A program made the translations under genes and the position numbers. From a virus: a stretch of DNA of 64,000 nucleotides. Position 1 is the stretch's first letter; each line of letters starts with the position of its first letter. Shown piece after piece: positions 1,555 through 39,117 of this stretch. The notes under the pieces were generated by a model. The model was not told where the DNA came from, searched no databases, and worked only from the letters and a program-made list of their open reading frames with translations. The stretch spans positions 49,337 to 113,336 of IMG/VR virus record IMGVR_UViG_3300047462_000282; one strand, written 5' to 3'.

Positions 1555-1577
1555 AATTACCAGCATAGAATGTGTAA

Positions 1578-2131: not shown

Positions 2132-2152
2132 CATTATAGAATAGGTGTGTAA

Positions 2153-3760
2153 ATGAGCCTCGACAAAATTCAACAACTAGTAGGTTCTCTAGCAAAGTCC
2201 GTAGAAGATAACGAGAGAATAGCTACCCCAATTCTTGCCGCTAAGTTAGCCAAGGCAGTAGATGCTTACCCAAGTGACCACACTATCGGCGCAATGTCCA
2301 GAGTGGTTCACAAAATGGCATCCAATAACACCATGTTCATCCGCAAAGCGGAATTGAGAACGCTTTACAACAAACTGTATACTCGTAATACTAAGTTTGC
2401 TGAGTTGTTCCAAAATGAAATGGGTCAAGTAGAAGAGCTAAAAGGAGCTACTACTTATCAGAGAGACGAAGCAGTTCAAGTGAATCCATACGAAGTTGGT
2501 GACACTGTACTAGCCAACGCACTGCAAAGTGTATTCGACAAGCACCTACCAGTCAAGATGTACTCTCAACCACTAGCTGATAAGGCTATGGCATCTGTTG
2601 CTTCCACTTTGGATGCTTGGAATTTGAAGCCAAGTGCCATTGCAGTAAGTGATGGTAACGACAAGTTCATTGTAATTAAGGCTGATTACGAAACTCCAAA
2701 GGGAGTCACTAGCTTTTATGTTCCAGTAGAAGTCCAAAATAACAAGGTAGTTGAAGCCGAAGTTTTCATGGGAAATACTGGTCCACAAGAGTTGAACTAT
2801 ACCGCACTAAAGGCTTATCTAACTACTTTTGCTGGTAACAAGTTGTCAATCAGTGGCACCAGCATTTTGAGCGTACTAACCACCGCAGCTTCTGAGAATC
2901 GCGAAGTTAGTGATGCAGAAATTGCTTTGACTAAGCTAAATGCTACCAGACAAGGTAAAGCTGAATTCTTCCAGAATCAGATTGTTGGACAGAAAATTGC
3001 CGAGGCATCTAAGAAGGATGTTGAACTTCCAAAATACGATGAATTCGTTTCTTTTGAAAAGCAATTTACTTCCGCATATGGACAAGCAGCGTTCCAATTT
3101 GGTGCTGACAAGGTTAAAGTTGCCAGAGACCACATTGTTAGAGAGCTAACTGGTTATGGTCACAAGAACCCTCAAGTTAATGTTGCTAAGAGTGATGACC
3201 ATACTATTTTCTACAACGTCGCCTTAGACGCTGGCAGAGTTGGTTTCGTTGTTCCAGTCAAGCTAGCTGATGGTAAGATTACTAAGCCTAGCGTTATGTT
3301 GTGCAACGGCACCGTATCCTCATTCAACCAAGAAGGTATTAACGAGTTGTATGTCAGCAATGCCAGCGATTTCAAAGCTGCAGCAGCTGCATCTCCACAA
3401 TTCGAATTGAAGCCAAGTGATTTGTTAGCAAACATCAGAAAAGCACTTGCCGAAGGCAACCATGCTAGTGCAGAAGATGCTTTGAATGTGCTATCAAGCG
3501 CTGGAGATGAGAAGGCTTATGCCACTGGATTCCAGCTATTCATGCAATGTCTAGCTAATAAGAAGGAAGCAACTGCTCCATCTCAATGTTCTAAGATGGT
3601 TAGAAACGCAAGCAGCGAGCACCCAATTTGCAGCCATACCGGCTTGCCAGTTCACAAAGTATATCAAGACAAAGATGGTAACTGCCGTCCTCTTTACAGA
3701 AGAGGAATGGAAGAAACCTATGAGGGCGCGGTTTTCAATAACTCTAAGATCTTCGGGTGA
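2153..3760 (+). CDS. Hypothetical 535-aa probable virion protein with Cys/His-rich C-terminus
   Basis: Long ORF with highly-expressed-type codon bias; C-terminal CSKM..CSHTG..CRP. Confidence 0.65.
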   Translation: MSLDKIQQLVGSLAKSVEDNERIATPILAAKLAKAVDAYPSDHTIGAMSRVVHKMASNNTMFIRKAELRTLYNKLYTRNTKFAELFQNEMGQVEELKGATTYQRDEAVQVNPYEVGDTVLANALQSVFDKHLPVKMYSQPLADKAMASVASTLDAWNLKPSAIAVSDGNDKFIVIKADYETPKGVTSFYVPVEVQNNKVVEAEVFMGNTGPQELNYTALKAYLTTFAGNKLSISGTSILSVLTTAASENREVSDAEIALTKLNATRQGKAEFFQNQIVGQKIAEASKKDVELPKYDEFVSFEKQFTSAYGQAAFQFGADKVKVARDHIVRELTGYGHKNPQVNVAKSDDHTIFYNVALDAGRVGFVVPVKLADGKITKPSVMLCNGTVSSFNQEGINELYVSNASDFKAAAAASPQFELKPSDLLANIRKALAEGNHASAEDALNVLSSAGDEKAYATGFQLFMQCLANKKEATAPSQCSKMVRNASSEHPICSHTGLPVHKVYQDKDGNCRPLYRRGMEETYEGAVFNNSKIFG

Positions 3761-3763
3761 TCT

Positions 3764-4654
3764 ATGAGATTGGCAAGGCTCGCTAAACTCTACGCTTGGA
3801 AATACAAGATCGCTGCCTCCCCAGCTGATTTAGAGAACGACTTGCGCCGTAAAATCATTGTGTTGTGGACTTATCCAAACAAGAATTTCGGAATTCTTAA
3901 GGCATGCGCTGAATCTGGTGCGGCAAAACCACAAACACCAAATGAACGTAAAGCAGTAGCTGGATATCAATTCTGTAAACAATTATTGTCAATTATTGAT
4001 TATTTGAAAGTTAATTATCTAAATATTAGTTTGCCAGAAATTAGAGAAGTATTAACCGACTTAATTCAATTAATCAATTCTAATAAAGATATGAAATTTA
4101 GTTCTGATGGTGCGCCGTCTGAAGATGGAGAACCATCTGCAGTTCAATTTCCACATGTTTCTGAATTAATTTTTCAAATGGTACCTATTTCTAAGAAGCA
4201 TGATATGAAGCTTAGAAATGAACAGTTTGGCAAAGCTAAAACTGGTTTGGCTAGAATTATGAGTGTGGCTATTGGGATGATGGATGATATCCATGAACTA
4301 GAAAGAGTTGCTCCAGAAAAATTCCAAGGTTATCAACCACAAACAGAGGTTGATATTGACCAGCCAATGCCTGGAAGATTTGCTCCTCAAAGGGCACCAC
4401 TGTCTGAATATGATATCATTGACTTTATTAGGCAGCATGGCAGTGAATATGGCATCTCCTCTCAAGAGGATTGGGGCACTGTTTTCCGTGATGACCCTCA
4501 ATTAAAACAAGATATGACAACGGTTATTAATGCATTGAATAGAGGACATTATCCAAAGGATTCTGCAGATGTCAAGATGCAAATCGCTGAGATCATTAAG
4601 AATCACGAACAAAGAAAGTCTTCCAATGCCCCTCTTTTTGAGGACGTAGAATAA
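3764..4654 (+). CDS. Hypothetical protein
   Basis: 296-aa ORF tightly packed in the operon. Confidence 0.6.
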   Translation: MRLARLAKLYAWKYKIAASPADLENDLRRKIIVLWTYPNKNFGILKACAESGAAKPQTPNERKAVAGYQFCKQLLSIIDYLKVNYLNISLPEIREVLTDLIQLINSNKDMKFSSDGAPSEDGEPSAVQFPHVSELIFQMVPISKKHDMKLRNEQFGKAKTGLARIMSVAIGMMDDIHELERVAPEKFQGYQPQTEVDIDQPMPGRFAPQRAPLSEYDIIDFIRQHGSEYGISSQEDWGTVFRDDPQLKQDMTTVINALNRGHYPKDSADVKMQIAEIIKNHEQRKSSNAPLFEDVE

Positions 4655-4666
4655 ACAGAGGCACTT

Positions 4667-5386
4667 ATGAGAATCGCAGAAATGTTACAAGCTATCGCAT
4701 CTTGGCTGGAAAGTCCAGACAATGAGGCTTTGCTATTAGCCGAATATCACGACGACAGCATGAAAGTTGTTGCCGAGAATTGTGTTCTTGCTGCCGCTCT
4801 TTTAAAGAGTGCCGCTGAACAAGTATCCGAAATGGAACCACCTCCAGAATCCAATTTAACTCCTGAAAACATCCAGGAAATTGCTAATCTTGCCAATGCT
4901 TTCGACGCTTCCGGTGATCCAGGTCTAAAGAAGCAAGCTTCTGTACTTGACGAACTACTACTATCTATTGCAGCTCCGCCAAATGCTTATGCTGAGAGAA
5001 AAGATCTACAAGAGCAAAGATTAGTCGAACTAAAGAAAAAGTACGAGCAACCTCGTGAAGATTTGGCTGAAGCTAACTTGATTAACAAGTCAGAAAAGGC
5101 AATTGATAAAAGTGAGATGACCAAGAGATACAATATTTTGGAAGCTCCACTTAGCTCCAGATATTGTCCAGATCATCCAGGCGTTCAAATTGCTCGTGTG
5201 GGTGAACACATGTGGCAATGCGAGATGGATAAGAAAACCTATAACTTTGAGACCGGTTTCGAATTGAACAATGGTGCCAAGGTTCCAGGTGGTGACGTTG
5301 CTCAACAAACTCAGAACTCTCTTAACGTTCCATATCACGCTATCTTCGATACCCGTGAAGGCAGACTTGGTTACAACAAGCCATGA
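4667..5386 (+). CDS. Hypothetical protein with small Cys/His motif (YCPDH..WQC)
   Basis: 239-aa ORF with SD GAGG; carries the shared helical module LANAFDASG. Confidence 0.6.
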   Translation: MRIAEMLQAIASWLESPDNEALLLAEYHDDSMKVVAENCVLAAALLKSAAEQVSEMEPPPESNLTPENIQEIANLANAFDASGDPGLKKQASVLDELLLSIAAPPNAYAERKDLQEQRLVELKKKYEQPREDLAEANLINKSEKAIDKSEMTKRYNILEAPLSSRYCPDHPGVQIARVGEHMWQCEMDKKTYNFETGFELNNGAKVPGGDVAQQTQNSLNVPYHAIFDTREGRLGYNKP

Positions 5387-5395
5387 AGGATTTTA

Positions 5396-6154
5396 ATGAA
5401 CAAACCAGCTTACAAAAAAATTCTGGAGCATCCAGATAAGGATGAAATTATTGCTAAGTTGGTGACTGGTCAATCGCCTGCCGAGATACATGAATGGTTA
5501 AAAGCTAAATATACCAATGTAAGTGAATCGAAGTTTGTCTTAACTGAGAAACTTCTAAAGTCATTTCAAAATACATATTTAGATTTCTATAATGATATTC
5601 AAGAAGATTTAGCTAAAACTAAAACGGCTCTGGCAACCAACACCTCTGATCAGCTAGATTTAGCAGTCAAGGGCAATCCAGCATATAAAGATGCTATGCT
5701 CAAGCTTGCCAATGGAGAGCTAGATGTTGATAGAATTTTAGCTAATTTAGCTATTAATATAGAGACTCGTTTGTCTCAAATTTTTGATTATATTCAGGAA
5801 AATCCTAGGGATGTTAATACTAGAATAGACCGCTTGATCACAGAATATGCTGATACCTTGGGTAATTTATTAGATAAATACCATAAGTGGAAGGAAGTTC
5901 GCCCTGATCAAATCATCCAGCACAACGTGACTTTGCAGGTCGTAGACCAGCATATTTCGGTATTTCATGATGTAATCAAAGAGGTTTTATCTCAAATGGA
6001 TTTGGAAACTTCCCTATATTTCATGGAAGTATTCAATGAGAAAATGGCTAAGCTAAAGATGCCAACTCCAGAAGCTCCGCCATCAACTGAGATGAAACTT
6101 GCTGAAGCTAAATTGCTTAACGAGACCATCAATAAGAAGATTAACGAGTCATGA
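5396..6154 (+). CDS. Hypothetical protein, possible terminase small subunit
   Basis: N-terminal HPDKDEIIAKLVTGQSPAEIHEWLK looks like the HTH of Mu-gp27-like small terminases, followed by long helices; it lies 6 kb from terL. Confidence 0.3.
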   Translation: MNKPAYKKILEHPDKDEIIAKLVTGQSPAEIHEWLKAKYTNVSESKFVLTEKLLKSFQNTYLDFYNDIQEDLAKTKTALATNTSDQLDLAVKGNPAYKDAMLKLANGELDVDRILANLAINIETRLSQIFDYIQENPRDVNTRIDRLITEYADTLGNLLDKYHKWKEVRPDQIIQHNVTLQVVDQHISVFHDVIKEVLSQMDLETSLYFMEVFNEKMAKLKMPTPEAPPSTEMKLAEAKLLNETINKKINES

Positions 6155-8100
6155 CCAACAAACACCACTCACCAATTATCGATATGCCATCCAAGGAACA
6201 ATTGGAAATGGCTACTCGTCCATCTGATGAAGAATTGGTGTTGAATCCAGAAATGAAGACTAAGCTTGAAAAGTTGATGAAGTATTTTGATGAGGTGGGC
6301 ATCGACTACTCTAAATTTGATCCAGAGTCCATACCTCACCTAGATTTTAGCAAAAAGGACGCATATCCAAATTTCGACCAATACATGCACATCCCTGGGC
6401 AGCACAATACCCAAAAGTGGTTGGCAGCAGTTCGTTCTATTTATCAAACGGAGAAAAGTGGCAGTGGTCGTGTAGATGCTATTCGTAAAGCTACTTCAGG
6501 TTGGAATATCATGGAGACTTATGACTTCTTGAACTGGCTAAAATATCATGAATCAGGAGATCACTTGAAATACAAATTTGCACAACTATGGTATGAAAAC
6601 GGTGCTCCCGGTTATTTTTTACATGTGAAACCAGATCCAGTCAAAGAGCCAGAACCACAAGTTACTGGACGTGACATTGATTTCGCCAGAGACTCTGTTA
6701 CCGAAAAGACTGAGCGTAAACAAATTATCGAGAAGCAAAGAAATAAAATCATTGGACGCTTGGACTCAGCAGAAAAATTGCTAAGATCGCCTGATGGTCA
6801 AATCTTCTCTGGAAAAGAATTCGAATCACTACTGGAATCCATCTACGAATTAAAGAAGAGGATTCAGATGGTTAACAAGATTAGCTCTTCAACTAGATTG
6901 TATGAAGATATGATTGTGCGTCAAGCTAACGTACTTCAAAGGCAAGGTTTTACTAAGGCAGCATCTGTACTACATTCTTTGGCTCAAAGCCCAGCACAAT
7001 CTGGAGAAGAGGTAAAAGAGCAAGGTGAAGCAGGCGCTGGAAATGTAATTCCTCCAGCTACGCCACCAGACGATCCAACAGGTGCTGGTCATCCAGGCGC
7101 TCCAGGAGGATTGCCATCTATGGGTCCAGGTATGCCTCAAAACGCGCCTTCTGATAGCGTTCCAGAAACTGGTCCTAACGAAAATTTTCCAGGCAATCCA
7201 CAAGGTGGCGGAGGACAAGCTGCAACCACAACTCAAGCCCCAAACTCTTTGCCAGTAGAGCCACAAAAATCGAAAGGCATTAGTGAGTTTTTGGAAGGCA
7301 TGGAAACATCCAAGTTCACTACTGATGAGGGTGTAGCAGAAGATGATGGATTAGAAGTTGACGACAACATCAATGTAGCTGACGATGATATGCTATTGGT
7401 TACAGAGGCACAAGCAGCTCCACCAGGACCAATTGATGAGCCAATGACTACAGCTCCAGCACCAGCACCATTGGATCCCGCTCCGATCCCAACTCCAAAA
7501 GCACCTGTTGCACCAGATGCTCCCGCAACCGAAGAGCCCTTGGAAGTAACTGAAGATGATATTGCTGCTCCACCAGGAGAAGCTGCAGTGCCCGCTGCTA
7601 GCGACTTTGATAACAAAGTTGATGCAGTATTTGCAAACATCACTGTTGCTGACGTAGTTGCCAAACTAGAAGACTTAGCCAAAATTTACAAGACCAGAGA
7701 AGTTCCAAGACAACTTGGAATTGTAGATATGATGTTAGGCAGTCTTGGACTTGCCTCCTATTTCCCTTCTCTATCCGAAGCAACCAACAAAGCTCTTGAA
7801 TCAAATAACTATATCTCTACTCGTTTGGAAGACATTTTATCCAAGCTACGTGGTGGTATGGCTGGTAATGAAATTGATTTGAAGGGCGGAGAGACTACTG
7901 AAAAACCAGAGGTGGCTGCACTTAAGGGAAAATTGCAACAAGATGAAGATAAAGAAAAGGCTCGTAAGAAGATGAGAAAAGAACAAGAAGCCGCCGAATT
8001 AGCTGGTCCTGCCAAGGAAACTCCAGAAGTAGAAATCGCAGAAGATTTAGGCGCCCCTCCAGCAGCTGCACCTCGTCCGCCTGTCGCCCCAACCGTATAA
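6151..8100 (+). CDS. Large Pro/acidic-rich probable internal virion protein
   Basis: 649 aa with two Pro/Gly/Glu-rich low-complexity stretches; ATGA overlap with the previous gene. Confidence 0.65.
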   Translation: MTNKHHSPIIDMPSKEQLEMATRPSDEELVLNPEMKTKLEKLMKYFDEVGIDYSKFDPESIPHLDFSKKDAYPNFDQYMHIPGQHNTQKWLAAVRSIYQTEKSGSGRVDAIRKATSGWNIMETYDFLNWLKYHESGDHLKYKFAQLWYENGAPGYFLHVKPDPVKEPEPQVTGRDIDFARDSVTEKTERKQIIEKQRNKIIGRLDSAEKLLRSPDGQIFSGKEFESLLESIYELKKRIQMVNKISSSTRLYEDMIVRQANVLQRQGFTKAASVLHSLAQSPAQSGEEVKEQGEAGAGNVIPPATPPDDPTGAGHPGAPGGLPSMGPGMPQNAPSDSVPETGPNENFPGNPQGGGGQAATTTQAPNSLPVEPQKSKGISEFLEGMETSKFTTDEGVAEDDGLEVDDNINVADDDMLLVTEAQAAPPGPIDEPMTTAPAPAPLDPAPIPTPKAPVAPDAPATEEPLEVTEDDIAAPPGEAAVPAASDFDNKVDAVFANITVADVVAKLEDLAKIYKTREVPRQLGIVDMMLGSLGLASYFPSLSEATNKALESNNYISTRLEDILSKLRGGMAGNEIDLKGGETTEKPEVAALKGKLQQDEDKEKARKKMRKEQEAAELAGPAKETPEVEIAEDLGAPPAAAPRPPVAPTV

Positions 8101-8113
8101 TTGAAACAAATGA

Positions 8114-8887
8114 ATGAAACTCCGAGAACTACTCCACACGATGCAGGAAGTACAAAAGAAAATAGGGTCAGCTAAACCCTATATTTGTGGTGGTACGCCC
8201 CGCGATAAGTATATGGGGCACTTAGAGAATATTTCAGATTTGGATATTACTACAGGCGATAAGACTGTAGACTATTTGTCTCAAGAATTTGCTATTGAAC
8301 TAAAAAAGAAGTACAACATCACCAGAAAAACTATGGAAGATGGTCATAGCACTATCTTTGTGGGTACTCTGAAAATGGACTTCTCATCTAATTTTAATGT
8401 CCCAGGCATCGAACAAATTTTAGCTGCTCGTGGCATTCCCAATGCTACCGATATGCAAAAAGAGATGTTTAGTCGTGACTTCACATGTAACGCTTTACTA
8501 CTATCAATGGACCTAAAAAATATTGTAGATCCAACCAATAGAGGGTTTAAAGACATCAAAGAAAGAAAAATCAGAACTTGTTTAGATCCAAAAACCACAC
8601 TCACTTCCAATAGAAATAGAGTGATTCGAGCCATTTATTTAGCTGCTAAGTTGGATTTTGATTTAGATGATGCTATTGTTGAATTTGTACAAAAGAATCC
8701 AGAATCGGTTAAAATTTCCACTGAGAAGTCCATGGTAGAAAAGCTAAATGAAGCCTTCAAGCGTGATGCCGATAAATCTAGCTATTTAATTACTAAATTA
8801 GGTCTATGGAATCATATTCCTATTACCGAAGCCGTATATCCTTACTATATGAAAGCAGTTAAAGGGAAAACCAATGTGCCCAAATAA
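8114..8887 (+). CDS. Divergent class II nucleotidyltransferase (poly(A) polymerase / CCA-adding family)
   Basis: YICGGTPRD, DLDITTG, SRDFTCNALL, RVIRAIYLAAKLDF. Confidence 0.85.
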   Translation: MKLRELLHTMQEVQKKIGSAKPYICGGTPRDKYMGHLENISDLDITTGDKTVDYLSQEFAIELKKKYNITRKTMEDGHSTIFVGTLKMDFSSNFNVPGIEQILAARGIPNATDMQKEMFSRDFTCNALLLSMDLKNIVDPTNRGFKDIKERKIRTCLDPKTTLTSNRNRVIRAIYLAAKLDFDLDDAIVEFVQKNPESVKISTEKSMVEKLNEAFKRDADKSSYLITKLGLWNHIPITEAVYPYYMKAVKGKTNVPK

Positions 8888-9980
8888 AAAAGCATATTTT
8901 CAAGGCGACGGCGGACCTAATGAACCAACACCTGGAAAAAAGAAATACAAATCAGATCCTGCAATCGTGGTGCAACCTCGTTTCGAGGAACCATTTTATC
9001 GCAACTACGATTTGTATACAATTCCGGGAATGGAGCACGTCGGTCCAGGAACTGGCTGGCATGGTCTGCAAAATTACAAAAGTGTTAAAGAGTTTTTGGA
9101 TGCCCGTCGTGAACGTCTAAAACCACGTTATGTTGCCGATGATTCTTGGCAAATGGATAATGGTAATCGTGTAAAGAAAAATCCTGAACGTCAAGCTAGG
9201 GCTTCCATTTTTGAAAAAATTATTAAACAAGCCCGTATGCCAGGCATGAGTCTGGTTCATAAGTTAAATGACAAGTTTAAGGGCGATGACAATGATGGTC
9301 CAAACTTTGATTATGGTGATGGTGCCTATACTGCGATGAGTGAAGGTAAGAAGATAAAGACTATTACAGATGCTCCACATAAGAGCCCAGGCGCTTTCTT
9401 TGCTGACGATAATGAAGATCATATGCTGCCTCCCAAAGAGCATGGAACTTCAATCTATGACTGGAAGAATAGCCCATATCAAGGAGTGCCTAAGGCTCCT
9501 AAGAAGAAACATGATGTGCATTCTATAGATTATCCAATTGATGAAAATATTGGGTCAGGTCCTATCTTGGGAGATTCCGAGTCCTACAACAGCCCTATTC
9601 AGTTAGGTCCTACTGGCGAACCAGATACCTCAATTTCTCCTGAATCAGTTAATTTAGGAGATTCCGAGAGCTATCCTTACTCTGCCCAGATAGGCGGCTT
9701 GCTAGACAAGTACCTGCCTCAAAATGACTCCGAGGATAAAACCCCGGCTGAGCTAGATTTCGGGCGCGATTATACTGGCGATGAGCCTAAGATGGATTCT
9801 GAAAAAGTTAAGAATTTAATAGATAAGTATTTGAATCCAGCCCCTACCTCTGGCTTGTTTGGATTGCCAGATGGAGTAGACTTGCCAGATGAAGATTTAG
9901 GAAATCCAACGAATATTAACCCAGATTACGGCACAACAGATGTCGGAATCACTATGTATGAAGATAAATGGAATATTTAA
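8874..9980 (+). CDS. Acidic Gly/Pro-rich hypothetical virion protein
   Basis: Starts KKAYFQGDGGPNEPTPG, a motif shared with the scaffold protein; internal LGDSESY repeat. Confidence 0.6.
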   Translation: MCPNKKAYFQGDGGPNEPTPGKKKYKSDPAIVVQPRFEEPFYRNYDLYTIPGMEHVGPGTGWHGLQNYKSVKEFLDARRERLKPRYVADDSWQMDNGNRVKKNPERQARASIFEKIIKQARMPGMSLVHKLNDKFKGDDNDGPNFDYGDGAYTAMSEGKKIKTITDAPHKSPGAFFADDNEDHMLPPKEHGTSIYDWKNSPYQGVPKAPKKKHDVHSIDYPIDENIGSGPILGDSESYNSPIQLGPTGEPDTSISPESVNLGDSESYPYSAQIGGLLDKYLPQNDSEDKTPAELDFGRDYTGDEPKMDSEKVKNLIDKYLNPAPTSGLFGLPDGVDLPDEDLGNPTNINPDYGTTDVGITMYEDKWNI

Positions 9981-10044
9981 CCTACGGCTATTATTACATA
10001 TAAAGGCATACAGATATATGAAAACCCGTTCTAGAGGTATCTAA

Positions 10045-10989
10045 ATGTCACTACAGTCAGAAGCACAATTACTAGTTGTTGACCCATCAGGTGGAATGCC
10101 AATGGGCGGAAGTCCTATGGAACTGGTACCATTGGAAGTTTCCGAGGTACATCCAGATCATCCAGCTGAGGCTACCATGTCTCCACTTGAAGTAGGCGAA
10201 CCGGGCGAAATTTCTATTGTAATTGAAGATCTTCCCGGCGCTCCTCCAGGCACCCATGACCCTGAGCCAGAGCCACACATTGAAGTTCACGAAGACGATA
10301 AAGACAATATCGATGACAATGATGCTAAGAAATCCAAAAAGGATCCTAAGTGGGATTGGGAATCTAGAGGCGCCAAAGGTTTTATTGCTTGGGTTAAAGA
10401 ACGTTGTGATGATGTTCCAAAGCATTCCGGTTATGATACCGCAGGACTTGAGAGAGCAGTCGCTTATCTAGACAGACTAGATAACGAAATTTCCAAGGCA
10501 ATGAGATTGGATTTGGATGGCGAATTAGATGCAGACCAAATTGAAAAAGTCAGAGCCACCATTGATAATGGTATTGAGAGACTACACGATCGTCTTGACA
10601 AAGTAAAGAAACACAAGAAGACCAGCCGCAAGAAGAAGTCCGAGTTCGAGCCTGATGGCATTGTTAAAGAAGCACAAAAGGTAACCGGAGTTCAGGGCAT
10701 CTACATCGTGGCACCACTATTGACTTCAAGAATTGCCCGAGTCTGTATTAACGGAATGGTTTCTGCAGGTCATGACATTGAGGATTTGTTTGACAGACAA
10801 GTCAAGTACTATAATCTAAACAAGCGCGAACAAGCTGAAGTAATGCAACTTTTGATGGACATGGGTTATGCCGTTCGTCAAGACAGAGGCTTCATGCCAG
10901 ATCAAGATTTGCATGTTGAGGATAGCGACAATATGGATTGGGCAGCTAATTACAACAACGGCGCAAACATTTGGGGCGAGAAGAAATAA
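10045..10989 (+). CDS. Hypothetical probable virion protein
   Basis: 314 aa, SD GAGG; acidic N-terminus and helical C-terminus. Confidence 0.6.
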   Translation: MSLQSEAQLLVVDPSGGMPMGGSPMELVPLEVSEVHPDHPAEATMSPLEVGEPGEISIVIEDLPGAPPGTHDPEPEPHIEVHEDDKDNIDDNDAKKSKKDPKWDWESRGAKGFIAWVKERCDDVPKHSGYDTAGLERAVAYLDRLDNEISKAMRLDLDGELDADQIEKVRATIDNGIERLHDRLDKVKKHKKTSRKKKSEFEPDGIVKEAQKVTGVQGIYIVAPLLTSRIARVCINGMVSAGHDIEDLFDRQVKYYNLNKREQAEVMQLLMDMGYAVRQDRGFMPDQDLHVEDSDNMDWAANYNNGANIWGEKK

Positions 10990-11642
10990 TGTCCAAGTAT
11001 ACCAGACACCAACCAGTAGTTTCGAGAGAGGCTGATTCCAGCATTGATGAGGATCACTGGCTTCGCCAATTTCAAAGAAAGTTGGAGAAGGGTGCTGTAC
11101 AACCTCGCACTATTGAGAACTCTTTGTTTGATCAAATTAATTCCATCATGAATGGAAAATCAAAGTATCCTTCTGTAGAGGCAGCAGTAGAAGATATGAA
11201 GGAAAGAAGTGGATTGTCTGCTTATCTAGACAAAATCAAGCAATCTGCTGATGAGAATGTATCTGTCAAAACTAAAGTAGCATCGGATCAAAATGATGCT
11301 ATGGAAAAGAAAGTTGACATGATTCCAATCGTTCTCAAGAAGATGCCACAGATTCACAAAACTTTAGAGAACTATATTAGAGACAGCAAGGGCAATTTAC
11401 CAGTTCCAGCAATCATTGAGAAAATCAGATCCATTCACAAATCTGACGTCTCTGATGCCAAGGATTGGGACGACGATAATTTAATTAGATTGGTTAGTAA
11501 GATGAATTTAGAGGCTAAGAAGAACAACCCAGCAAGTTATGAAAGCTACAGTAACTTAGGCTCTCGTGATACTGGATCTGATACAGAGATTGACCCATCT
11601 AATACTGATGCGTTTCACGCTCTGACCCCAGTGAAGGATTAA
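10989..11642 (+). CDS. Hypothetical probable virion protein
   Basis: Start reassigned to the ATG in the TAATG stop/start overlap at 10989 (MSKYTRHQ). Confidence 0.6.
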   Translation: MSKYTRHQPVVSREADSSIDEDHWLRQFQRKLEKGAVQPRTIENSLFDQINSIMNGKSKYPSVEAAVEDMKERSGLSAYLDKIKQSADENVSVKTKVASDQNDAMEKKVDMIPIVLKKMPQIHKTLENYIRDSKGNLPVPAIIEKIRSIHKSDVSDAKDWDDDNLIRLVSKMNLEAKKNNPASYESYSNLGSRDTGSDTEIDPSNTDAFHALTPVKD

Positions 11643-12132
11643 TCTTCTTCCTAGTTACTCTAATAATAACTTCTGGCTTCTTATGTGGACAATATCCAAA
11701 GAAACCTTTTGCACAATTGCAATTAAAACAAAGCAATTGGTATTTATCTTTAGGAAAATTATTTTGAATTAGCCAACGATAAAGTTTGCCGCCCGTTTTC
11801 TTTCCATTCTTTTTTCTATCTTCCGCCCCATCATTATGAGTGTGATCAATTGTTAAAAATTCTAAAATAGTTTCGCCACAACAAGTGCACATGCTACCAT
11901 AAGCTTCTATGACCTTTCTTTTATTTTCAAGATCGTATTCTCTTTGCTGCTCTCTAATTAACTCTTTTCTTTCAAAATATCTGCGTTTACCTTTAGCTTT
12001 AGTGCAGCTAATACATAAATAATTAGCCTGTTGTATATCACTTGGTCTGGTGTTATCTTTTGTTAAAGGTCTAAGACAATGTATACAGTCTTTTCCTTCA
12101 TAGGTGTAAGGTCCACGTTTTTTCTTGTCCAT
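11599..12132 (-). CDS. HNH homing endonuclease, antisense, immediately upstream of terL
   Basis: CTCCGE..FLTIDH..YQLLCFNCNCAK; start taken at ATG 12132 (MDKKKRG), which removes the overlap with terL. Confidence 0.8.
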   Translation of the reverse strand: MDKKKRGPYTYEGKDCIHCLRPLTKDNTRPSDIQQANYLCISCTKAKGKRRYFERKELIREQQREYDLENKRKVIEAYGSMCTCCGETILEFLTIDHTHNDGAEDRKKNGKKTGGKLYRWLIQNNFPKDKYQLLCFNCNCAKGFFGYCPHKKPEVIIRVTRKKINPSLGSERETHQY

Positions 12133-12160
12133 GGCAATATTCTGAAATATTGCCATGGAC
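12127..12160. repeat. Perfect 15-bp inverted repeat containing the divergent start codons of the HNH gene and terL
   Basis: gtccatggcaatatt-ctga-aatattgccatggac. Confidence 0.9.
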
Positions 12161-14017
12161 GATAAAGAGCTTTTTGAAAAACTTAAGAAACAACTTCTCA
12201 GTCTTGACCCAGTAACATTTTGCCAGCTCAATTTAACATTAGATGGTAAACCATTTAGATTAGAGGGCAATGGCTATCGACCTTTTGCCGACATTTATCG
12301 TTACATTGGAATTAAAGCTTTAGAGCCTAACGCCAAGCCAGTTATCATGGTTAAAGGTCGTCAGGTCGGAGCTACTACTATGGCAAGCGCCCTTGAAATG
12401 TATTTCATGGGCTCAGGAATTTTTGGTATTGGCGAGAAACCTCCAATTAGAGTTATCCATGCCTTTCCTCAATTAGAATTGGCTGCCGCTTACTCTAAAA
12501 CTAAACTTAATCAAATCATCGTTACTGCTGTTCCTGCTGTTGGTCAAGAGAAGAAGACTGGTAAAGCCAAGTCTTGTATGCAGGTTCTACTAGATCAATC
12601 TACGGCTACTAGCGACTCTTTGCACTTCAAGCAATTTGTTGGCGGCAACCATTTGTGGGTAGAATCGGTTGGACTTGACGGCGACCGCATCATGGGTCGT
12701 ACTGCTGACGTTATTTTCTTTGACGAAGTTCAGAAGACTACTGGAATGGCAATCGGTAACTCCCTCAAAGTTCTTACCACTGCTAAGTATGGTAAGCCAT
12801 CTAAGGGTGTGCAGGTGTATTTTGGAACGCCACGTCGTAAGGGTTCCGATTTCTACAAGATGTGGCAAACATCTTCCCAACAGTATTATTACTTAGGCTG
12901 TGAGCAATGTAAAGAGCATTTCCCACTTTATACTCCTGGCTCTGATGATTGGCAGAAAATTTGGTTGCATGGCTTCGTCGTCAAATGCACTCACTGTGGA
13001 CATGAACAAGATAAGCGCGAAGCTGCCGAGCGCGGTAAGTGGGTTGCTCTTAAGAATTCTGACGATGAAGATTGTTTAATGATTGGGTTTCATATAAACC
13101 AGCTTTACATGCCTATGTTCAGTAAAGAAGATATCTTGAATGAAATGCCTGGCGTTCATCCAATCAATACTGAACGCGTATTTCAAAACGAAGTGTTGGG
13201 TGAGTTCTTTCAGGGAGATTCTAGCCCTATTACTCCAGAAGAAATTAGAGATAAATGTGCTGATGTTGGTAGAAAATTTTCCGCCCGCATTGAGAAGTCT
13301 CAAGATAATATCATCGTCGTTGGAATAGACTATGGCGCACGTTCCGACTTGGAACAACTAGCTAATCCAGATAAAGTTAAAGCTGTAGGACAATCTTACA
13401 GTACTGCCGTAGTTTTGCAGGTATCTGGTCCTGGACTACTATCTATTGAGTTTGCAACTAAGTTTAGGCGTAATGATTTGGAAAGTAAAAAGGGAATCAT
13501 CGATCAGATTATGAGGCAGTACAGCATTCAGTTGGCAGTAGGAGATATTGGTTACTCTAATGACTTTTCTGCAATTTTACATAATACCTATGGCGACCGC
13601 TATCTAGTTTCTCGCGCTCATAATAGAGTTAATGGTCACGTTAAGTATACTGAAGAGGCATTTCCAAAAGAAATAGTTTTTGAAAGAGATTATTATATTG
13701 GTGAATTATATGAACAAATGAAAAAGGGAATGATTAGATTTCCATTTGGAGATTATGAAAAAGTAGCTTGGTTAATTGAGCATTGTACTAGTATGGAGAT
13801 TAAACCAGCAATTTCAAGGGGCGGAGATCCAAGTGTTCATTATGTTAAAGGAAGTACTCCAAACGATGGTTTTATGGCATTATTGAATGCATACATTGCT
13901 TATAAATTCCTAATAACAAACGGATTTAGCAATAATAATCCAATTCTTCAGCAACAAAACTATCAACAAATCAAAAAACCACTTGTAGCTAGCGGGTATA
14001 TGCCTCGTAAGTTTTAA
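12155..14017 (+). CDS. terL: Terminase large subunit
   Basis: ATPase motif VKGRQVGATT, Walker B IFFDEVQ, GTP coupling motif, CEQC..CTHCG insert, RNase H-like VVGIDYG, C-terminal NDGFMAL. Confidence 0.9.
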   Translation: MDDKELFEKLKKQLLSLDPVTFCQLNLTLDGKPFRLEGNGYRPFADIYRYIGIKALEPNAKPVIMVKGRQVGATTMASALEMYFMGSGIFGIGEKPPIRVIHAFPQLELAAAYSKTKLNQIIVTAVPAVGQEKKTGKAKSCMQVLLDQSTATSDSLHFKQFVGGNHLWVESVGLDGDRIMGRTADVIFFDEVQKTTGMAIGNSLKVLTTAKYGKPSKGVQVYFGTPRRKGSDFYKMWQTSSQQYYYLGCEQCKEHFPLYTPGSDDWQKIWLHGFVVKCTHCGHEQDKREAAERGKWVALKNSDDEDCLMIGFHINQLYMPMFSKEDILNEMPGVHPINTERVFQNEVLGEFFQGDSSPITPEEIRDKCADVGRKFSARIEKSQDNIIVVGIDYGARSDLEQLANPDKVKAVGQSYSTAVVLQVSGPGLLSIEFATKFRRNDLESKKGIIDQIMRQYSIQLAVGDIGYSNDFSAILHNTYGDRYLVSRAHNRVNGHVKYTEEAFPKEIVFERDYYIGELYEQMKKGMIRFPFGDYEKVAWLIEHCTSMEIKPAISRGGDPSVHYVKGSTPNDGFMALLNAYIAYKFLITNGFSNNNPILQQQNYQQIKKPLVASGYMPRKF

Positions 14018-21252: not shown

Positions 21253-24200
21253 ATGTTTATCAAACAAGGTGAACTCATAGAGATTAACAGGATTGAAAAT
21301 ACAGCATCCTGTATTCCTGCCGTTAATCCAGAAATTCTAGAGAACTTTAGAAAAGTAGCTGCGAATCTAAAAAAGATTGCCCCTAAAGCTGAAGATTTCC
21401 TTTATTTTTCTGCTGTTATGATGCATGCTGCTGAAGCTGCCGCGCTTAATGACGATGGCACTCCTAAGCTAAACGCCAAGGGCGAACACGTTGAAGTGGG
21501 CTGGAATAAGCAGGATGGCTCATGGCGCTGGATGAGTAATGATCCAAGCATTAAGCCTTATAAGAATTCTAATGGCGACATATTCCCCGAGGAAGAACTC
21601 GTAAAAGCATATAAGAAGTGGGTAGGCAAGCCTCTTTGCATCGATCATAAATCCAGCTCGGTAGATCATGTAAGAGGCTTTATTGTTGATACCTACTACG
21701 ATCGCGGGCTCAAGAGGGTTATCGCGCTATGTGCATTAGATAAACATAATTACCCAGATTTGGCTCGTAAGGTTGCCACTGGATATTCTAACTGTGTTTC
21801 TATGGGTACTGCTGTCGGACGCGCTATTTGCTCTGATTGTGGACGTGTTGCCCGTGCCGAACAAGACTTCTGCACCCATATGAAGACCAAGAGCTGCTAC
21901 GGCGAAATTAACGTAGACTTAAATCCAATTGAACTATCCATTGTTGTTAATGGTGCCGATCCAAAAGCTAGCATCAAACACATCATTGCAGCCGCTAACA
22001 CTCTTAATAGCTATGTTGAAACAAAGCAAAAAGAGCTAGAAAAATTGGCTGAAGATACTTATGTAGCCAATCTCTCTTTTGAAAATAAGGGTGGCGACGG
22101 GTTTTCTAAAGATCCAGGAAAAGTAACCAATGTAAGCGTTACTGCTAAAGATCTTGAAAGCTTTAAAAAGGATGTTGATAAGGCAATCGAGGACTTCCAA
22201 AAACTTCAATCTTCTATTTCAAATGAAGAAAATATGGAAGAACCTGGTAATCAACTGGCATCTGATCAAATGACCGGTCCTGGTTTAACTGGACCTGCAG
22301 CCGATTCAGGATTGGCTCCTCCAACTGCAAGATATGCCTCTGCCAATGTTGGAGCAGATACTATCGCCGAGCTTCGCGAGGTCACCAAGACCATTGAAGC
22401 TAAATTGAGCCAAATGAAACAAACCTTGGATAAGTTAGCAAACACTTCTACAAAACAAACACAAGAGGAAACTATGTCTGGAACACAAGATCTAAATAAA
22501 AAGGGTTACTACCAGGGTGCTGGCGGCGTTAACGAGCCTACTCCAGGTCAACCAAAATATACTAAGGACCCACTAAATGAAGAGCTTCGCGAAAAAGAAG
22601 ACAAGCAAATGGTTGGTCAATCTCCGTTCCCAGGCGTAGGTCCTGTTGATGGAATGCATCCAAGCCCAGAGTCTGCTGACCCTGCAAACGAGTTAGAGCG
22701 TAAAAAGATGCTTGCTCGCGCAGAAGCAGAAGAGAGAGCAATTCGCCGTCAAGCAATTGTTAACTTAGCTAAGGGTGCTTTAGAAAACAAGCAAGCTTAT
22801 TTCCAGAATGGTTTGGAAAAGGGTAATGTTAACACCCCAACTCCTGGTCAAGTTAAGTATCCAAAAGACAAGCTTAACGAACAACTTCGTGATTACGAAG
22901 ACAAGCAAATGGTCGGACAAAAGCCATTCCCAGGCGTCGGACCAGTTGATGGAATGCATCCATCTCCAGCTTCCGCAGAAACTCCTGACGAAAAGAAGCG
23001 TAAGGAAATGCTACAAAGAGCATCCTTGAGAGCAAGATTCGTCAAGGCAGCAAACGAAGACGGAACTCAGAACCTAGCTAAGAGCGCATGGGAAGTATTC
23101 CTAGGCGACAAGCTTCTTCTTACCGCATCTGTTGACGAGCTTTCTGGTGGACGTACTGAACTAATGTACGACCACATTGCAACCAAGGAATTTGGTAGCA
23201 CTTTGATTGCTAAGGTCAAGAAGGAAGGCGCTGAGAAAGTTGCCAAACTATACAAGACCGCACAAGCTGAGCCTGCTGCTCCAGCACCAGAGGCTGGTCC
23301 ATCTGGTGAGCCTATGCCCCAAGCAGAAGACACTGGCAAGTCTGGTGATCCAAAGGAAAACGTACTAAGTCTAGCTGAAAAAGTTAGAGACCTATCTTCT
23401 GACCTAGTTGAAGGCGTTAGAGCCTTGACTGGTGAGCAAGCAGAAATGGGCGCAATGGAAGGTGGAGAAATTCCAGAAATGGGCGCAACCACAGCTTCTG
23501 ATAGCTTTAGCACTGCCACTCTAAACACTCTAAGAAAGCAATTGAACGGAGCCCTTACAGACGCTATGAAGGAAGCCGTTGCAGAGCTTAACGATCATCA
23601 ATCTGAACTTGAAATGATCGCAGGTCTTTACGATAAAGGCGCTGTCAGCCCGTCCAATACGGAATTAGTTGGCACCCTCGTACAAGATGCAATGAACGAA
23701 GCCAAGACCGCTGTTGCTGACGGATTCCAGCTTATGACTGCTTTCGTCAAGTATGCTCGTGGTACCCAGGCTATCGTCAAGCGCGCCGAAATGGAAGCAG
23801 AACTTGAAGCACTAGCTGAGGGAGAAACTATGACAACCGAACACGATAGTCATTCGGATGATGACTTGATGAATCTAGTCCAAGAGACCAATGCTGACTT
23901 GGATGCAGTTAAGGATTTGATGAGCGACGAGCACTCTGTTGATGCAGACCCTGCTCTTGATTTGGATGCTGCATTGCCAACCGACGATGCTAACGAAGTA
24001 AACGTTGACATTAAGGATCCAAAGGCTCTAGACATGCTACCAAAGGGAACTGCAGTTGTTACTGCCTCCTACGATAGCAAAGAAGGTCGTGCCGCTCTTC
24101 GTGCTAAGCTAGCAGCTGATGCTCTTGGCAAAGAAGACGATGGCGAAATTCAAGATATGTCCAAGGCTAAGTTCAGCGATATGTTGCAAGAAGCAGATCG

Positions 24201-24831
24201 CCTTGCTGATGGTCAGACCCAGCTTGACACCAAGCCATCTGACAGCCTAGGAAAAGTTGAAACTCTTCCAGAAATCAACAAGCAAATGATGGACGTCGCT
24301 AAAGCTCCACCTAAGGTACGTAAGGAAGCAGAAGCCATTTACAAGCTTGTCTCTGAAGGCAAGCTAGATCCTAAGGACCTAGATGCTCTAGTAGCAGAAG
24401 GTTTGGATAAGGATGCAGTTGCTTACTACAAGAAGTACTTCGGTGAAGTTGATGGTGGTGGCGAATTCGCAACCGAATTGGTCAAGGAACACGTCAAGGC
24501 TCAATTGGAAGCAGAGCTTGGCAAGTACAGAGTCAAGTTGGCACGTTCTTACGAGCTAGCATATGACATGGTTGAACGTGGTTTGTGCCACAGTGATAGA
24601 GCCGCAGTCTCTTCTCAGGTCGATGAAATCATGAAGTTTAATGATGATAGCTTCGAGTCCTTGAAGAGAGTAGTTGCAAAGCATGCTCCAGTGCTACGCA
24701 AGGAAGCTGGTCGCCTACCACTAGTTGGTATGCTAGGTTCTGGTGAAGTTAATGGCGCTGCTCCAACTGAGTCTGATGATTGGAATCAATTGTCCGCAGC
24801 ATTTGCTAAGACCTCTAAGAGACTGTTCTAA
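21253..24831 (+). CDS. Prohead protease fused to a scaffold / internal core protein
   Basis: N-terminal DIFPEEEL..GKPLCIDH..RGFIVD..VSMG..ELSIVVNGADPKA fits the HK97/assemblin-type protease (His and Ser); long acidic coiled-coil C-terminus; lies upstream of the capsid genes. Confidence 0.75.
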   Translation: MFIKQGELIEINRIENTASCIPAVNPEILENFRKVAANLKKIAPKAEDFLYFSAVMMHAAEAAALNDDGTPKLNAKGEHVEVGWNKQDGSWRWMSNDPSIKPYKNSNGDIFPEEELVKAYKKWVGKPLCIDHKSSSVDHVRGFIVDTYYDRGLKRVIALCALDKHNYPDLARKVATGYSNCVSMGTAVGRAICSDCGRVARAEQDFCTHMKTKSCYGEINVDLNPIELSIVVNGADPKASIKHIIAAANTLNSYVETKQKELEKLAEDTYVANLSFENKGGDGFSKDPGKVTNVSVTAKDLESFKKDVDKAIEDFQKLQSSISNEENMEEPGNQLASDQMTGPGLTGPAADSGLAPPTARYASANVGADTIAELREVTKTIEAKLSQMKQTLDKLANTSTKQTQEETMSGTQDLNKKGYYQGAGGVNEPTPGQPKYTKDPLNEELREKEDKQMVGQSPFPGVGPVDGMHPSPESADPANELERKKMLARAEAEERAIRRQAIVNLAKGALENKQAYFQNGLEKGNVNTPTPGQVKYPKDKLNEQLRDYEDKQMVGQKPFPGVGPVDGMHPSPASAETPDEKKRKEMLQRASLRARFVKAANEDGTQNLAKSAWEVFLGDKLLLTASVDELSGGRTELMYDHIATKEFGSTLIAKVKKEGAEKVAKLYKTAQAEPAAPAPEAGPSGEPMPQAEDTGKSGDPKENVLSLAEKVRDLSSDLVEGVRALTGEQAEMGAMEGGEIPEMGATTASDSFSTATLNTLRKQLNGALTDAMKEAVAELNDHQSELEMIAGLYDKGAVSPSNTELVGTLVQDAMNEAKTAVADGFQLMTAFVKYARGTQAIVKRAEMEAELEALAEGETMTTEHDSHSDDDLMNLVQETNADLDAVKDLMSDEHSVDADPALDLDAALPTDDANEVNVDIKDPKALDMLPKGTAVVTASYDSKEGRAALRAKLAADALGKEDDGEIQDMSKAKFSDMLQEADRLADGQTQLDTKPSDSLGKVETLPEINKQMMDVAKAPPKVRKEAEAIYKLVSEGKLDPKDLDALVAEGLDKDAVAYYKKYFGEVDGGGEFATELVKEHVKAQLEAELGKYRVKLARSYELAYDMVERGLCHSDRAAVSSQVDEIMKFNDDSFESLKRVVAKHAPVLRKEAGRLPLVGMLGSGEVNGAAPTESDDWNQLSAAFAKTSKRLF
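22498..23030 (+). repeat. Tandem duplication of an ~80-aa unit inside the scaffold protein
   Basis: Units start at 22498 and 22789; both contain EDKQMVGQxPFPGVGPVDGMHPSP with clear nucleotide similarity. Confidence 0.9.
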
Positions 24832-37318: not shown

Positions 37319-37885
37319 ATGGATCCTAAGAAACTTCGCAAAGAATATATGAAGCTCCAGCCCAAGCTAAGAAAAGTTATGGAGCACGTTACTACTCAAC
37401 TGGCCGATTTGCCGCCAGATGATTTTATATTGGAAACCAATGTAAAGCCATACACTAGTATCAAACGTAAAATGGAAACGGATGATATTAGGAACCCAGA
37501 AGAATTATCTGACCTAATCAGAGGTCGCATTTTCTATTCTCCAGGATTTAATGCCAATGATATTGTTGGTATCTTGAAAAAGCTATTTGGTAAGTCAATC
37601 AAAGATATTGACAACAATAAACGTCGTTCACCAGAACATGGATTAGACTATCATGGAATAGTTCATGTAGATTTAAATTTTGATGGCACTAATTTCGAAT
37701 TGCAATTGATACCACTTGAATTCAAGCCATACAAAGAATTTCTACATCAGATTTATGAGAAGTTTCGCAATGAAAAAGATCGTGACAAAATGTCAGATCA
37801 CCAAAAAAAGTTCTTGCGCAAAATTCATAACAAGATGTACAAAAAACTAGATGATGAAGCTCAAAAGAACAGAGAAGATAATTAA
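37319..37885 (+). CDS. Stand-alone RelA/SpoT synthetase-like (small alarmone synthetase family) protein
   Basis: VKPYTSIKRKM, SDLIRGRI, DYHGIVHV, FELQL and HQIYEK correspond to SYNTH motifs with substitutions. Confidence 0.7.
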   Translation: MDPKKLRKEYMKLQPKLRKVMEHVTTQLADLPPDDFILETNVKPYTSIKRKMETDDIRNPEELSDLIRGRIFYSPGFNANDIVGILKKLFGKSIKDIDNNKRRSPEHGLDYHGIVHVDLNFDGTNFELQLIPLEFKPYKEFLHQIYEKFRNEKDRDKMSDHQKKFLRKIHNKMYKKLDDEAQKNREDN

Positions 37886-39117
37886 AGCTTCTTAGTCACT
37901 TCTAGCAAATAAGACTTGGTATTGTGTTCGGGATGACGCAAAATTTCATTGTAGCATTCATCTAAAGCTATTTTCAACTTAGGACCGGCAGGAATACCCG
38001 CTTCCATCAAATCATTTCCATTTATCTGCATTTCCTTCTTTGAATACACGATTTCTGTCTTGTACTTGGCGAGGAGCGCCCTAGATGGGGTGCCAAGGAC
38101 TTCAGACAACTCTATAAATTGCTCTAGTACCTGTTGCCAGGGCTCAGGAGCATGATTTTTGATGACTGCCATAAAGCTCTTATAGGCTAACGGCGTGTCT
38201 TTAGCTTGAAAAGTAGCAAACCGCTCCAAAATTTCCAATAAAAAGACCACCTTTTTGATTTCCTTATTAGAAAGTTTTAGATTAAACAGCTCTGCATTGA
38301 CTTCATGTGCCGGAATCTTGTTGTACAGGAAGGCAAGGCGAGTTTCTAGCTCACCTTTAACACGATCCTGATGAGCTAACAGAGGTAATTGTCGTCCTGC
38401 CAGCAAAGGACAAGCAATATCTAAAGCACCCGACTTCAAAAGCAGTTGTAAACCATAAGATGGTTGAGCTGTCATCAAAGTCTTACACAATTCATCGCTA
38501 ATTCTCTCTTTAGAGACCTTTTCGAGAGTTTCTAAGCTCTCTTCCATACCTTTAAACGTTTCTCCATCTACGCTGTAACCAAAACGTGCAGCAAATCTAG
38601 CTACACGCATGATTCTAAGTCCATCTTCTTGAAATCTGGATTTAGGATTACCAACAGCTTTGATTATTTTTCGTTTTAAATCTTCAACGCCTTGATAAGG
38701 ATCAACAATTTCATGTGACAATGGATCATAAGCAATGGCATTGATGGTTAAGTCTCGTCTTGCTAAATCTTGCTCGACATTCATCACGAAAAACACTTCT
38801 TCTGGACGTCTTCCGTCTTTGTATTCTCCTTCAATTCGAAATGTGGTCACTTCGAAATGATTTTGAACACCTTCACCCATGGCAACTGTGATAGTACCAT
38901 GCTGTAATCCAGTAGGATATGTTTTAGGAAATAGGCTCAGTACTTTTTGAGGGCTTGCATCTGTTGTAATATCCCAGTCTTTTGGTTGAACACCTAAGAA
39001 CAAATCGCGCACACAACCACCTACTAGGTAGGCTTGATGCCCCGCCTCGTTAAGTATGCGACATACTTCAATAGCCTGAGGATGAATCAGATTTTGAAAA
39101 AGTTTAGAATTTAACAT
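37882..39117 (-). CDS. cca: tRNA nucleotidyltransferase (CCA-adding enzyme, class II)
   Basis: LVGGCVRD, DWDITT, EVTTFR, YKDGRRPEEV, DLARRDLTINA, FQEDGLRIMR, C-terminal INGNDLM..GIPAGP. Confidence 0.9.
   Translation of the reverse strand: MLNSKLFQNLIHPQAIEVCRILNEAGHQAYLVGGCVRDLFLGVQPKDWDITTDASPQKVLSLFPKTYPTGLQHGTITVAMGEGVQNHFEVTTFRIEGEYKDGRRPEEVFFVMNVEQDLARRDLTINAIAYDPLSHEIVDPYQGVEDLKRKIIKAVGNPKSRFQEDGLRIMRVARFAARFGYSVDGETFKGMEESLETLEKVSKERISDELCKTLMTAQPSYGLQLLLKSGALDIACPLLAGRQLPLLAHQDRVKGELETRLAFLYNKIPAHEVNAELFNLKLSNKEIKKVVFLLEILERFATFQAKDTPLAYKSFMAVIKNHAPEPWQQVLEQFIELSEVLGTPSRALLAKYKTEIVYSKKEMQINGNDLMEAGIPAGPKLKIALDECYNEILRHPEHNTKSYLLEVTKKL

Follow-up and report, generated by a model that had tools for sequence, protein, structure and literature searches.

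A head-and-neck-only class II nucleotidyltransferase with an altered base-recognition motif in an uncultured huge phage, and its possible tie to capsid assembly

For polymerases templated by protein, the textbook example is the class II CCA/poly(A) polymerase family, whose EDxxR template is regarded as nearly immutable. In those class II enzymes that add CCA, a flexible loop that lies between motif B and the strand of the third carboxylate is also required for the switch from C to A addition. The body and tail domains of class II enzymes grip the acceptor and T arms of tRNA (PMC3925840). When EDxxR was randomised in the human enzyme and selected in vivo with Asn allowed, no variant in which the Asp or the Arg had been replaced was ever recovered (PMC11784652). 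Surveys of huge phages list canonical CCA-adding enzymes only (PMC7162821, PMC7824862). Here we describe a nucleotidyltransferase (NTase) gene at positions 8114 to 8887 of a 64,000-nt stretch of viral DNA (the window; positions 49,337 to 113,336 of IMG/VR record IMGVR_UViG_3300047462_000282). Its product is related to these enzymes, differs from them at the template and in domain content, and may be tied to capsid assembly.

Fold and active-site motifs of the NTase

The features of the NTase and of the canonical enzyme in the same window are as follows.

8114..8887, plus strand: mini-NTase, a 257-aa head-and-neck-only class II nucleotidyltransferase (open reading frame (ORF); PF01743; AlphaFold2 (AF2) model; Foldseek)
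8189..8245, plus strand: motif A, GGTPRD (aa 26-31) and the catalytic carboxylates D42-L-D44; G26, G27, R30, D42 and D44 invariant in 105 sequences
8378..8380, plus strand: D89, probable third catalytic carboxylate, in a family-specific D-F-S-S-N-F strand, aligned to Glu74
8471..8479, plus strand: motif B, S120-R121-D122 and not RRD (alignments to the window's own Cca and to 4wby)
8606..8620, plus strand: motif D position, S165-N166-R167-N168-R169 and not E-D-x-x-R (BLASTP alignment)
37882..39117, minus strand: canonical full-length CCA-adding enzyme (cca, 410 aa; NCBIfam CCA equivalog; PF01743, PF12627, PF13735)

The NTase matched the Pfam head domain PF01743 (PolyA_pol) with 52.1 bits against a cut-off of 23 bits (E 1e-13) and also PHROG 2244, tRNA nucleotidyltransferase. 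The AF2 model built from 105 family sequences had a predicted local distance difference test score (pLDDT) of 95.9, and its top Foldseek matches in the PDB were all class II CCA-, A- or CC-adding enzymes or poly(A) polymerase (query TM-scores (TMq) of 0.65-0.71, probability 1.0). About 240 columns of these 370-420-residue targets were aligned, corresponding to head and neck. The head and neck fold is shared with class II enzymes that add CCA, A or CC, such as those of A. aeolicus (4wby/1vfg), G. stearothermophilus (1miv), T. maritima (3h39) and P. halocryophilus (6qy6), at a sequence identity of only 18-24%.

The class II catalytic core was present, with GGxxRD, DxD and, on the neighbouring strand, a third carboxylate. 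In a HMMER alignment to 4wby, the A-adding enzyme of A. aeolicus, D89 fell opposite Glu74, the third catalytic carboxylate there (PMC3925840). The original prediction, made from the DNA alone, had stated that the catalytic signature was kept; this held for GGTPRD and D42-L-D44 and extends to D89. It had also stated that EDxxR and RRD were replaced by SNRNR and SRD, and BLASTP against the window's 410-aa Cca bore this out, with FSRD opposite RRD and TSNRNR opposite QEDGLR; both changes are conserved in near homologs. In motif B Ser thus stands in place of the first Arg, with the second Arg and Asp retained, and at the motif D position the Arg (R169) is retained while the templating Asp is replaced by Asn. 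The motif E Arg is replaced by Tyr, and the Arg after the third-carboxylate strand is also lost, this strand reading D-F-S-S-N-F in the NTase and E-V-T-T-F-R in the class II enzymes. Compared with the class II enzymes and the window's own Cca, the positions kept are therefore GGxxRD, DxD, the third carboxylate, xRD, the motif C Asp and the motif D Arg, whereas SRD, SNRNR and the motif E Tyr set the NTase apart. Where class II enzymes have the flexible-loop segment, aa 99-105 and 113-119 of the NTase were modelled as two confident helices (pLDDT 97-98), and no disordered loop was evident in the AF2 model.

The body and tail domains PF12627 and PF13735 were sought in the 257-aa NTase with Pfam and gave no match, whereas the window's own Cca matched both; no RNA-binding domain match was obtained for the NTase either. 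As modelled, the protein is head and neck only, and the whole tRNA-binding body and tail are absent, unlike in the class II enzymes. Without body and tail the NTase would not be able to hold tRNA in the canonical manner. Bacterial PcnB (PDB 3aqk-3aqn), which has the same head and neck and belongs to the same Pfam family, was matched weakly; PcnB keeps EDxxR (PMC2532741) and has RNA-binding C-terminal domains, and the NTase has neither. The short CCA-like NTases of small phages in PHROG 24229 matched at 2.9e-9, over aa 113-222 only.

We considered whether the gene might be an ordinary divergent duplicate of a CCA- or A-adding enzyme or poly(A) polymerase. Pfam, PHROG and the source annotations do label it tRNA nucleotidyltransferase/poly(A) polymerase. 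However, it scored far under every curated equivalog cut-off, with 63.4 bits against 290 for the NCBIfam CCA equivalog NF009814, 41.5 against 438.8 for the CCA equivalog TIGR02692, and 43.5 against 305.65 for PcnB TIGR01942. It also has no tRNA-binding half and the template Asp is replaced (PMC11784652). Moreover, the phage already carries a canonical cca, which the original prediction had placed 30 kb away. That assignment was confirmed by a score of 316.9 bits for the encoded Cca, passing the 290-bit cut-off of the NCBIfam CCA equivalog, together with the PF12627 and PF13735 matches; the distance is approximately 30 kb. A plain duplicate is thus the least credible of the explanations considered, with hardly any probability left to it.

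Family-wide conservation and variation of the motifs

Among 5.8 billion proteins searched, 776 homologs of the NTase were found, the best 120 of which were all 242-260 aa long and 68-96% identical. When representatives at 50% identity were searched exhaustively with HMMER, 211 clusters were obtained at E<1e-10. In the nearest 120 cluster representatives, SRD was found in 119, x-N-[RK]-N-R in 119, GGTPRD in 117 and DFSSN[FY] in all 120. The head-and-neck-only members number in the hundreds and belong to huge phages whose metagenomes were taken from wetland, freshwater and elsewhere. No paper describing an SRD-type mini-NTase family was found in the literature search.

Residue conservation was scored over 105-109 representatives of 25-80% identity. 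In 105 sequences G26, G27, R30, D42, D44, D89, S91, R121 and R172 were invariant and H78, E117, S120, D122, N126, D139, D147 and R169 nearly so, with D122, D139, D147 and R169 at 90% or above. Of the 109 representatives, 108 had D at position 89 and one had E, S was present at position 120 in 107 of 109, and R169 was kept in 107 of 109. Since catalytic residues stay invariant over 25-80% identity, an active enzyme is expected and not a dead scaffold, and the NTase is probably catalytically competent. The original prediction had allowed that the protein was co-opted for a structural role. A catalytically dead domain retained as a structural or assembly protein would agree with the location in a late-gene block and with the alteration of some canonical motif residues, but little or no variation occurs at all three carboxylates, the GG motif, R30, R121, D122 and R169 in the 105 sequences, down to 25% identity, and we regard this explanation as very improbable.

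The templating position varied more. At position 166 the 109 representatives had D in 59, N in 28, S in nine and Q in five. On a quick maximum-likelihood tree (IQ-TREE) used to map motif states, basal clades read DDP[RK]R. In the derived clade to which the window's NTase belongs the motif was x-N-x-N-R, with S, Q, K, M or D now and then. Only in the window's subclade was Asn fixed in place of the templating Asp (119 of 120 near relatives). The hallmarks of the whole family are S-R-D and the D-F-S strand, and the Asp-to-Asn change is not one of them. SRD accordingly persists family-wide (107 of 109), and Asn within the subclade but not in the family as a whole, where 59 of the 109 representatives keep Asp. 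In the in vivo selection with the human enzyme DDxxR gave A-addition only (PMC11784652), so the basal DDPxR state would be compatible with A-addition. The window's SNRNR state would be incompatible with ordinary A- or CCA-addition, as no Asp replacement was ever selected there (PMC11784652). The window's NTase is therefore unlikely to serve as an ordinary enzyme for CCA- or A-addition. A family whose template drifted from DDPxR to x-N-x-N-R and which has no tRNA-binding half would be a natural experiment on how specificity is set.

A metagenomic protein of 7704 aa (P0251) contained at least three SRD-type mini-NTase domains, with motif B reading ..SSRDFTINSLY at approximately aa 1570, 3370 and 5160, and further GGAVRD motifs. 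Two other candidates, the long proteins P0261 and P0267 matched by the NTase, were dropped from the family, being tandem canonical RRD-type enzymes.

Fusions to other domains were found in four distant family members. One (P0200) carried Phage_lysozyme2 (39 bits against a cut-off of 28) together with an M15 peptidase close to threshold, and its gene order was that of the window; a second (P0231) carried Peptidase_M15_3 (27 bits against 23). Cell-wall hydrolases are typical of virion-borne proteins. A third (P0239) was fused to a HAD/Pnk-like phosphatase of the HAD_SAK/polynucleotide-kinase type, and in the fourth (P0262) an SRD-type domain was joined to a canonical CCA domain. Taken together the distant fusions would support two readings, a capsid-linked enzyme and RNA-end repair.

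In the second of these readings, the NTase would be a cytoplasmic enzyme for repair or tailing of RNA 3' ends, co-transcribed with the late genes but not packaged. It would work beside the window's own Cca, rebuilding or tagging ends after attack by host nucleases, or tailing host RNA. The last two fusions agree with this, as do descent from tRNA nucleotidyltransferases and the DDPxR of basal members, which is compatible with A-addition (PMC11784652); RNA-repair NTases are also common in jumbo phages (PMC7824862). Gp22 of Klebsiella phage fHe-Kpn01 (182 aa), which like the NTase is a phage-encoded truncated class II-like enzyme, is toxic in E. coli and was a hypothetical protein remaining once virion-associated proteins were excluded, and would fit the same role; no report connects it, unlike the NTase, with a capsid-assembly peptide or with terL (PMC7291057). 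On the other hand, the NTase has no body, tail or RNA-binding domain match and has lost several Arg that contact RNA or NTP. The RNA-repair reading also leaves unexplained the partner fusion with a peptide of the protease ORF (see below), the cell-wall hydrolase fusions and the conserved site before terL. We consider it possible but rather unlikely.

The partner protein and a peptide shared with the prohead-protease ORF

The gene following the NTase, here called the partner, and the ORF containing the prohead protease share a short peptide. The features concerned are as follows.

8874..9980, plus strand: partner, 368 aa, mostly disordered (AF2 pLDDT 51.7), overlapping the NTase stop by 14 nt
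8883..8948, plus strand: peptide N-K-K-A-YFQGDGGPNEPTPGKKKY, N-terminus of the partner and exact fusion junction in relatives
21253..24831, plus strand: 1192-aa ORF with a prohead (capsid maturation) protease domain at its N-terminus (PHROG 18299, 1.1e-15)
22495..22560, plus strand: first peptide copy in the protease ORF (aa 415-436), conserved in homologs
22786..22860, plus strand: second peptide copy in the protease ORF (aa 512-536), a pattern match

The AF2 model of the partner was of low confidence and largely disordered, with conserved ends. Of its 358 homologs, 119 were examined, and 27 of these were at least 480 aa long. The NTase was fused N-terminally to the partner in 22 of 104 scorable homologs, the join always reading ...PYYxK...K-x-A/G-YFQGGGG; split partners begin M-x-x-N-K-K-A-YFQGGGG. 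When fusion state was mapped on a FastTree tree of the partner, at least eight fusion or fission changes were counted, at least four of them forced by well-supported branches. One fused gene was present on five contigs, two of which came from different sources (ENA and JGI). Because the two proteins are fused in many relatives, NTase and partner appear to act as one unit. Prediction of the NTase-partner complex with custom alignments gave a score of 0.00 and no verdict, and was counted neither way. The C-terminus of the partner (window 9858-9980) reads ..LFGLPDGVD..YGTTDxGxTMYEDKWNI and is invariant or nearly so in 43 homologs; this tail motif occurs nowhere else in the window and is a second short linear motif beside the N-terminal peptide.

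In the window the two genes are split. The same 14-nt overlap, with the start codon at the same place, was found in a 72% identical genome (L001, 10755-10780), indicating that the split form is not an assembly slip. The overlap reads ..AAA TAA.. / ..A AAT AAA.. in both (window 8870-8895), and deletion of one A from the A-run yields the exact fused frame of the relatives. No known slippery motif fits and the start codon is conserved, so the overlap is read as probable translational coupling; a low-level product of programmed +1 frameshifting is a minor possibility.

The junction consensus was K-x-A/G-YFQGGGGVNEPTPG..KY, and a six-frame scan of the window found the peptide pattern only at 8883, 22495 and 22786. 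The N-terminus of the partner and aa 415-440 of the protease ORF were identical at 18 of 26 residues. Among homologs, the peptide was present in 103 of 119 partners and in 112 of 120 protease ORFs, 74 of which had two copies. The protease domain itself spans approximately aa 105-213 of the ORF. By tblastn it was related to the gp77 prohead protease of Rhodococcus phage E3 and the gp13 capsid maturation protease of Gordonia phage Stormageddon, and its nearest cultured homolog, at 5e-23 and 37.7% identity, was gp19 of Bacillus phage G (497 kb). The two peptide copies, at aa 415 and 512, resemble boundaries within a polyprotein. As the peptide lies both at domain boundaries of the protease polyprotein and at the boundary between NTase and partner, we infer that it may be a maturation-protease site or a capsid-docking element. 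The fusion of a class II NTase to a partner, joined at a peptide common to a prohead-protease ORF, appears to be new here.

The peptide contains conserved Tyr, Thr and Lys residues. A protein nucleotidyltransferase was also considered, one that would NMPylate (transfer a nucleoside monophosphate to) a hydroxyl residue of the partner or of the protease/scaffold ORF, or a protein of the host it is injected into. In agreement with this, the NTase has lost Arg residues with which canonical enzymes hold the RNA primer, and the enzyme adjoins the conserved Tyr-containing peptide in the fusions. Pol-beta-fold protein AMPylators also exist, such as GlnE, DrrA and the MNT antitoxins. However, we know of no protein-modifying member of the class II CCA family, and cleavage or docking explains the adjacency of the peptide equally well. 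Modification of proteins by the NTase is thus improbable.

Gene neighbourhood and comparison with packaged phage proteins

The position of the NTase relative to the packaging and head genes was examined, for which the following features are relevant.

1576-1609, plus strand: strong terminator-like hairpin, 15-bp stem and T run, directly after a sigma-like gene and ahead of the NTase block
4667..8100, plus strand: three genes upstream of the NTase (239, 252 and 649 aa), their order with the NTase conserved (tblastn to L001, L005, L007, L009 and L010)
12155-14017, plus strand: terL, 620 aa (PHROG 675, 7e-55)
14076-15935, plus strand: portal (PHROG 16240, 1.6e-51)
35292-36305: major head protein

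The 649-aa gene and the NTase are separated by 13 nt, the NTase and the next gene overlap by 14 nt, and terL begins 3.3 kb downstream of the NTase. The order 239 aa-252 aa-649 aa-NTase persists on contigs where the NTase is only 33-37% identical, and the order of the whole block was the same on contigs of 465 kb, 479 kb and 65 kb. Conservation of synteny with terL and portal, proposed as a check in the original prediction, was thus found even at this degree of divergence of the enzyme, the NTase lying upstream of both. The neighbours at 4667, 5396, 6151, 8874, 10045 and 10971 gave no reliable Pfam or PHROG family; the sole Pfam matches among them (Baculo_PEP_C and DUF5105) were below cut-offs, and for the proteins of 649 and 239 aa an Atlas search gave no usable lead. 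The 252-aa protein (window 5396-6154) has a helix-turn-helix-like N-terminus and sub-threshold Atlas leads to small terminase (Terminase_5 and Phage_Mu_Gp27; score 0.89). If it is the small terminase (TerS), the NTase would sit between terS and terL.

The co-directional block 1676-11642, preceded by the hairpin at 1576-1609, includes the NTase, and no further plus-strand terminator of comparable strength was found ahead of terL. A scan for sigma-70 promoters was at chance level, with 33 found and 31 expected. The NTase had been described as tightly coupled to structural neighbours and embedded in a head operon. The gap of 13 nt and the overlap of 14 nt uphold the coupling but the neighbours are not recognised as structural; likewise a conserved late-region site before the packaging genes stands, whereas the block from the 1576-1609 hairpin to terL consists of unassigned genes, for which 'head operon' is too strong a term.

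The IMG/VR record from which the window is taken is 193.5 kb long, with an estimated completeness of 45% (CheckV). The contigs bearing NTase relatives were 255-480 kb, indicating that the window comes from an uncultured huge-phage lineage. Megablast of window positions 6000-12000 against phage records gave zero matches, tblastn with the NTase gave only seven remote metagenomic or cyanophage matches (25-28% identity), and the best match in a terL search was only about 24% identical, to small Bacillus phages. The terL of one relative is 776 aa long, compared with 620 aa in the window. The window proteins also include a primase fragment and the sigma-like protein. Within the head gene block, a 256-aa protein (19544-20314) matched tyrosine-phosphatase families (PF13350, 2e-6), with a further weak match (0.002) to PF22784, the 'Swiss Army Knife' RNA-repair DSP-PTPase domain, and is a further enzyme sited in the structural region. 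The late region of the window is broken up by three endonuclease genes:

11599-12270, minus strand: HNH/Endo VII-like endonuclease, antisense, immediately before terL
27318-28151, plus strand: GIY-YIG homing endonuclease
36378-37301, plus strand: endonuclease directly after the major head protein gene

Our best explanation, held tentatively, is that the NTase is an active transferase of a non-tRNA type that is tied to capsid assembly, is loaded into the procapsid or processed there, and leaves with the DNA. It would descend from the class II CCA/poly(A) polymerases and have been reduced to head and neck. The loss of body and tail together with several Arg argues against tRNA-shaped substrates, and the most likely activity would be template-independent nucleotide transfer to an acceptor other than tRNA, with altered or relaxed base choice. 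The peptide would be cut by the maturation protease, or would dock in the capsid, and the NTase would thereby be carried into the procapsid or processed within it; it would then probably leave with the DNA as an injected enzyme. The link to the capsid is suggested by four genomic observations, namely the shared peptide, the recurrent fusion, the hydrolase fusions and the conserved synteny.

Several points weigh against this explanation. The immediate neighbours of the NTase have no recognised structural family, and in the window itself NTase and partner are separate genes, so that the NTase is not covalently joined to the peptide. The proposed cleavage or docking is suggested by the position of the peptide alone. 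The fusions to a phosphatase and to a canonical CCA domain would point to cytoplasmic RNA-end repair. The templating Asp position is variable in sister lineages (N, S, Q, K, M or D), which could reflect relaxed constraint and not a new specificity. Finally, a close cultured phage relative was absent from the megablast, NTase tblastn and terL searches.

A more specific form of the capsid-linked explanation can be stated, which as a whole is doubtful. In it the NTase would be the first class II (CCA-family) nucleotidyltransferase to serve as a capsid-loaded, injected effector, in phages of approximately 0.45 Mb. It would be carried in through the scaffold/protease-type peptide of the partner, whether fused or split, freed by the maturation protease and brought in together with the DNA. 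It would nucleotidylate a target that is not tRNA-shaped (host RNA ends, DNA ends or protein), using a rewritten nucleoside triphosphate (NTP) pocket with Asn for the templating Asp. If the capsid link is true, a nucleotidyltransferase would join the few enzymes that are loaded beforehand and injected by phages, and the K-x-A/G-YFQGGGGVNEPTPG..KY tag could predict the internal proteome of uncultured megaphage lineages.

T4 Alt and the internal proteins of T4 provide an analogy for packaged, protease-processed phage proteins. Loading into the procapsid and ejection are suggested for the NTase because of this analogy and that with the ejection proteins of SPN3US. Ejection proteins of giant phages are processed by the prohead protease (PMC5694885, PMC7411985, PMC10052503). 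The logic proposed for the NTase is the same as that of T4 Alt and the internal proteins and of the SPN3US and phiKZ ejection proteins (PMC5694885, PMC7411985), with targeting to the prohead, cleavage by the protease and delivery with the DNA. The known proteins belong to another enzyme class and show no homology to the NTase, and packaging and cleavage have been shown experimentally for them, whereas for the NTase they are suggested by the genes.

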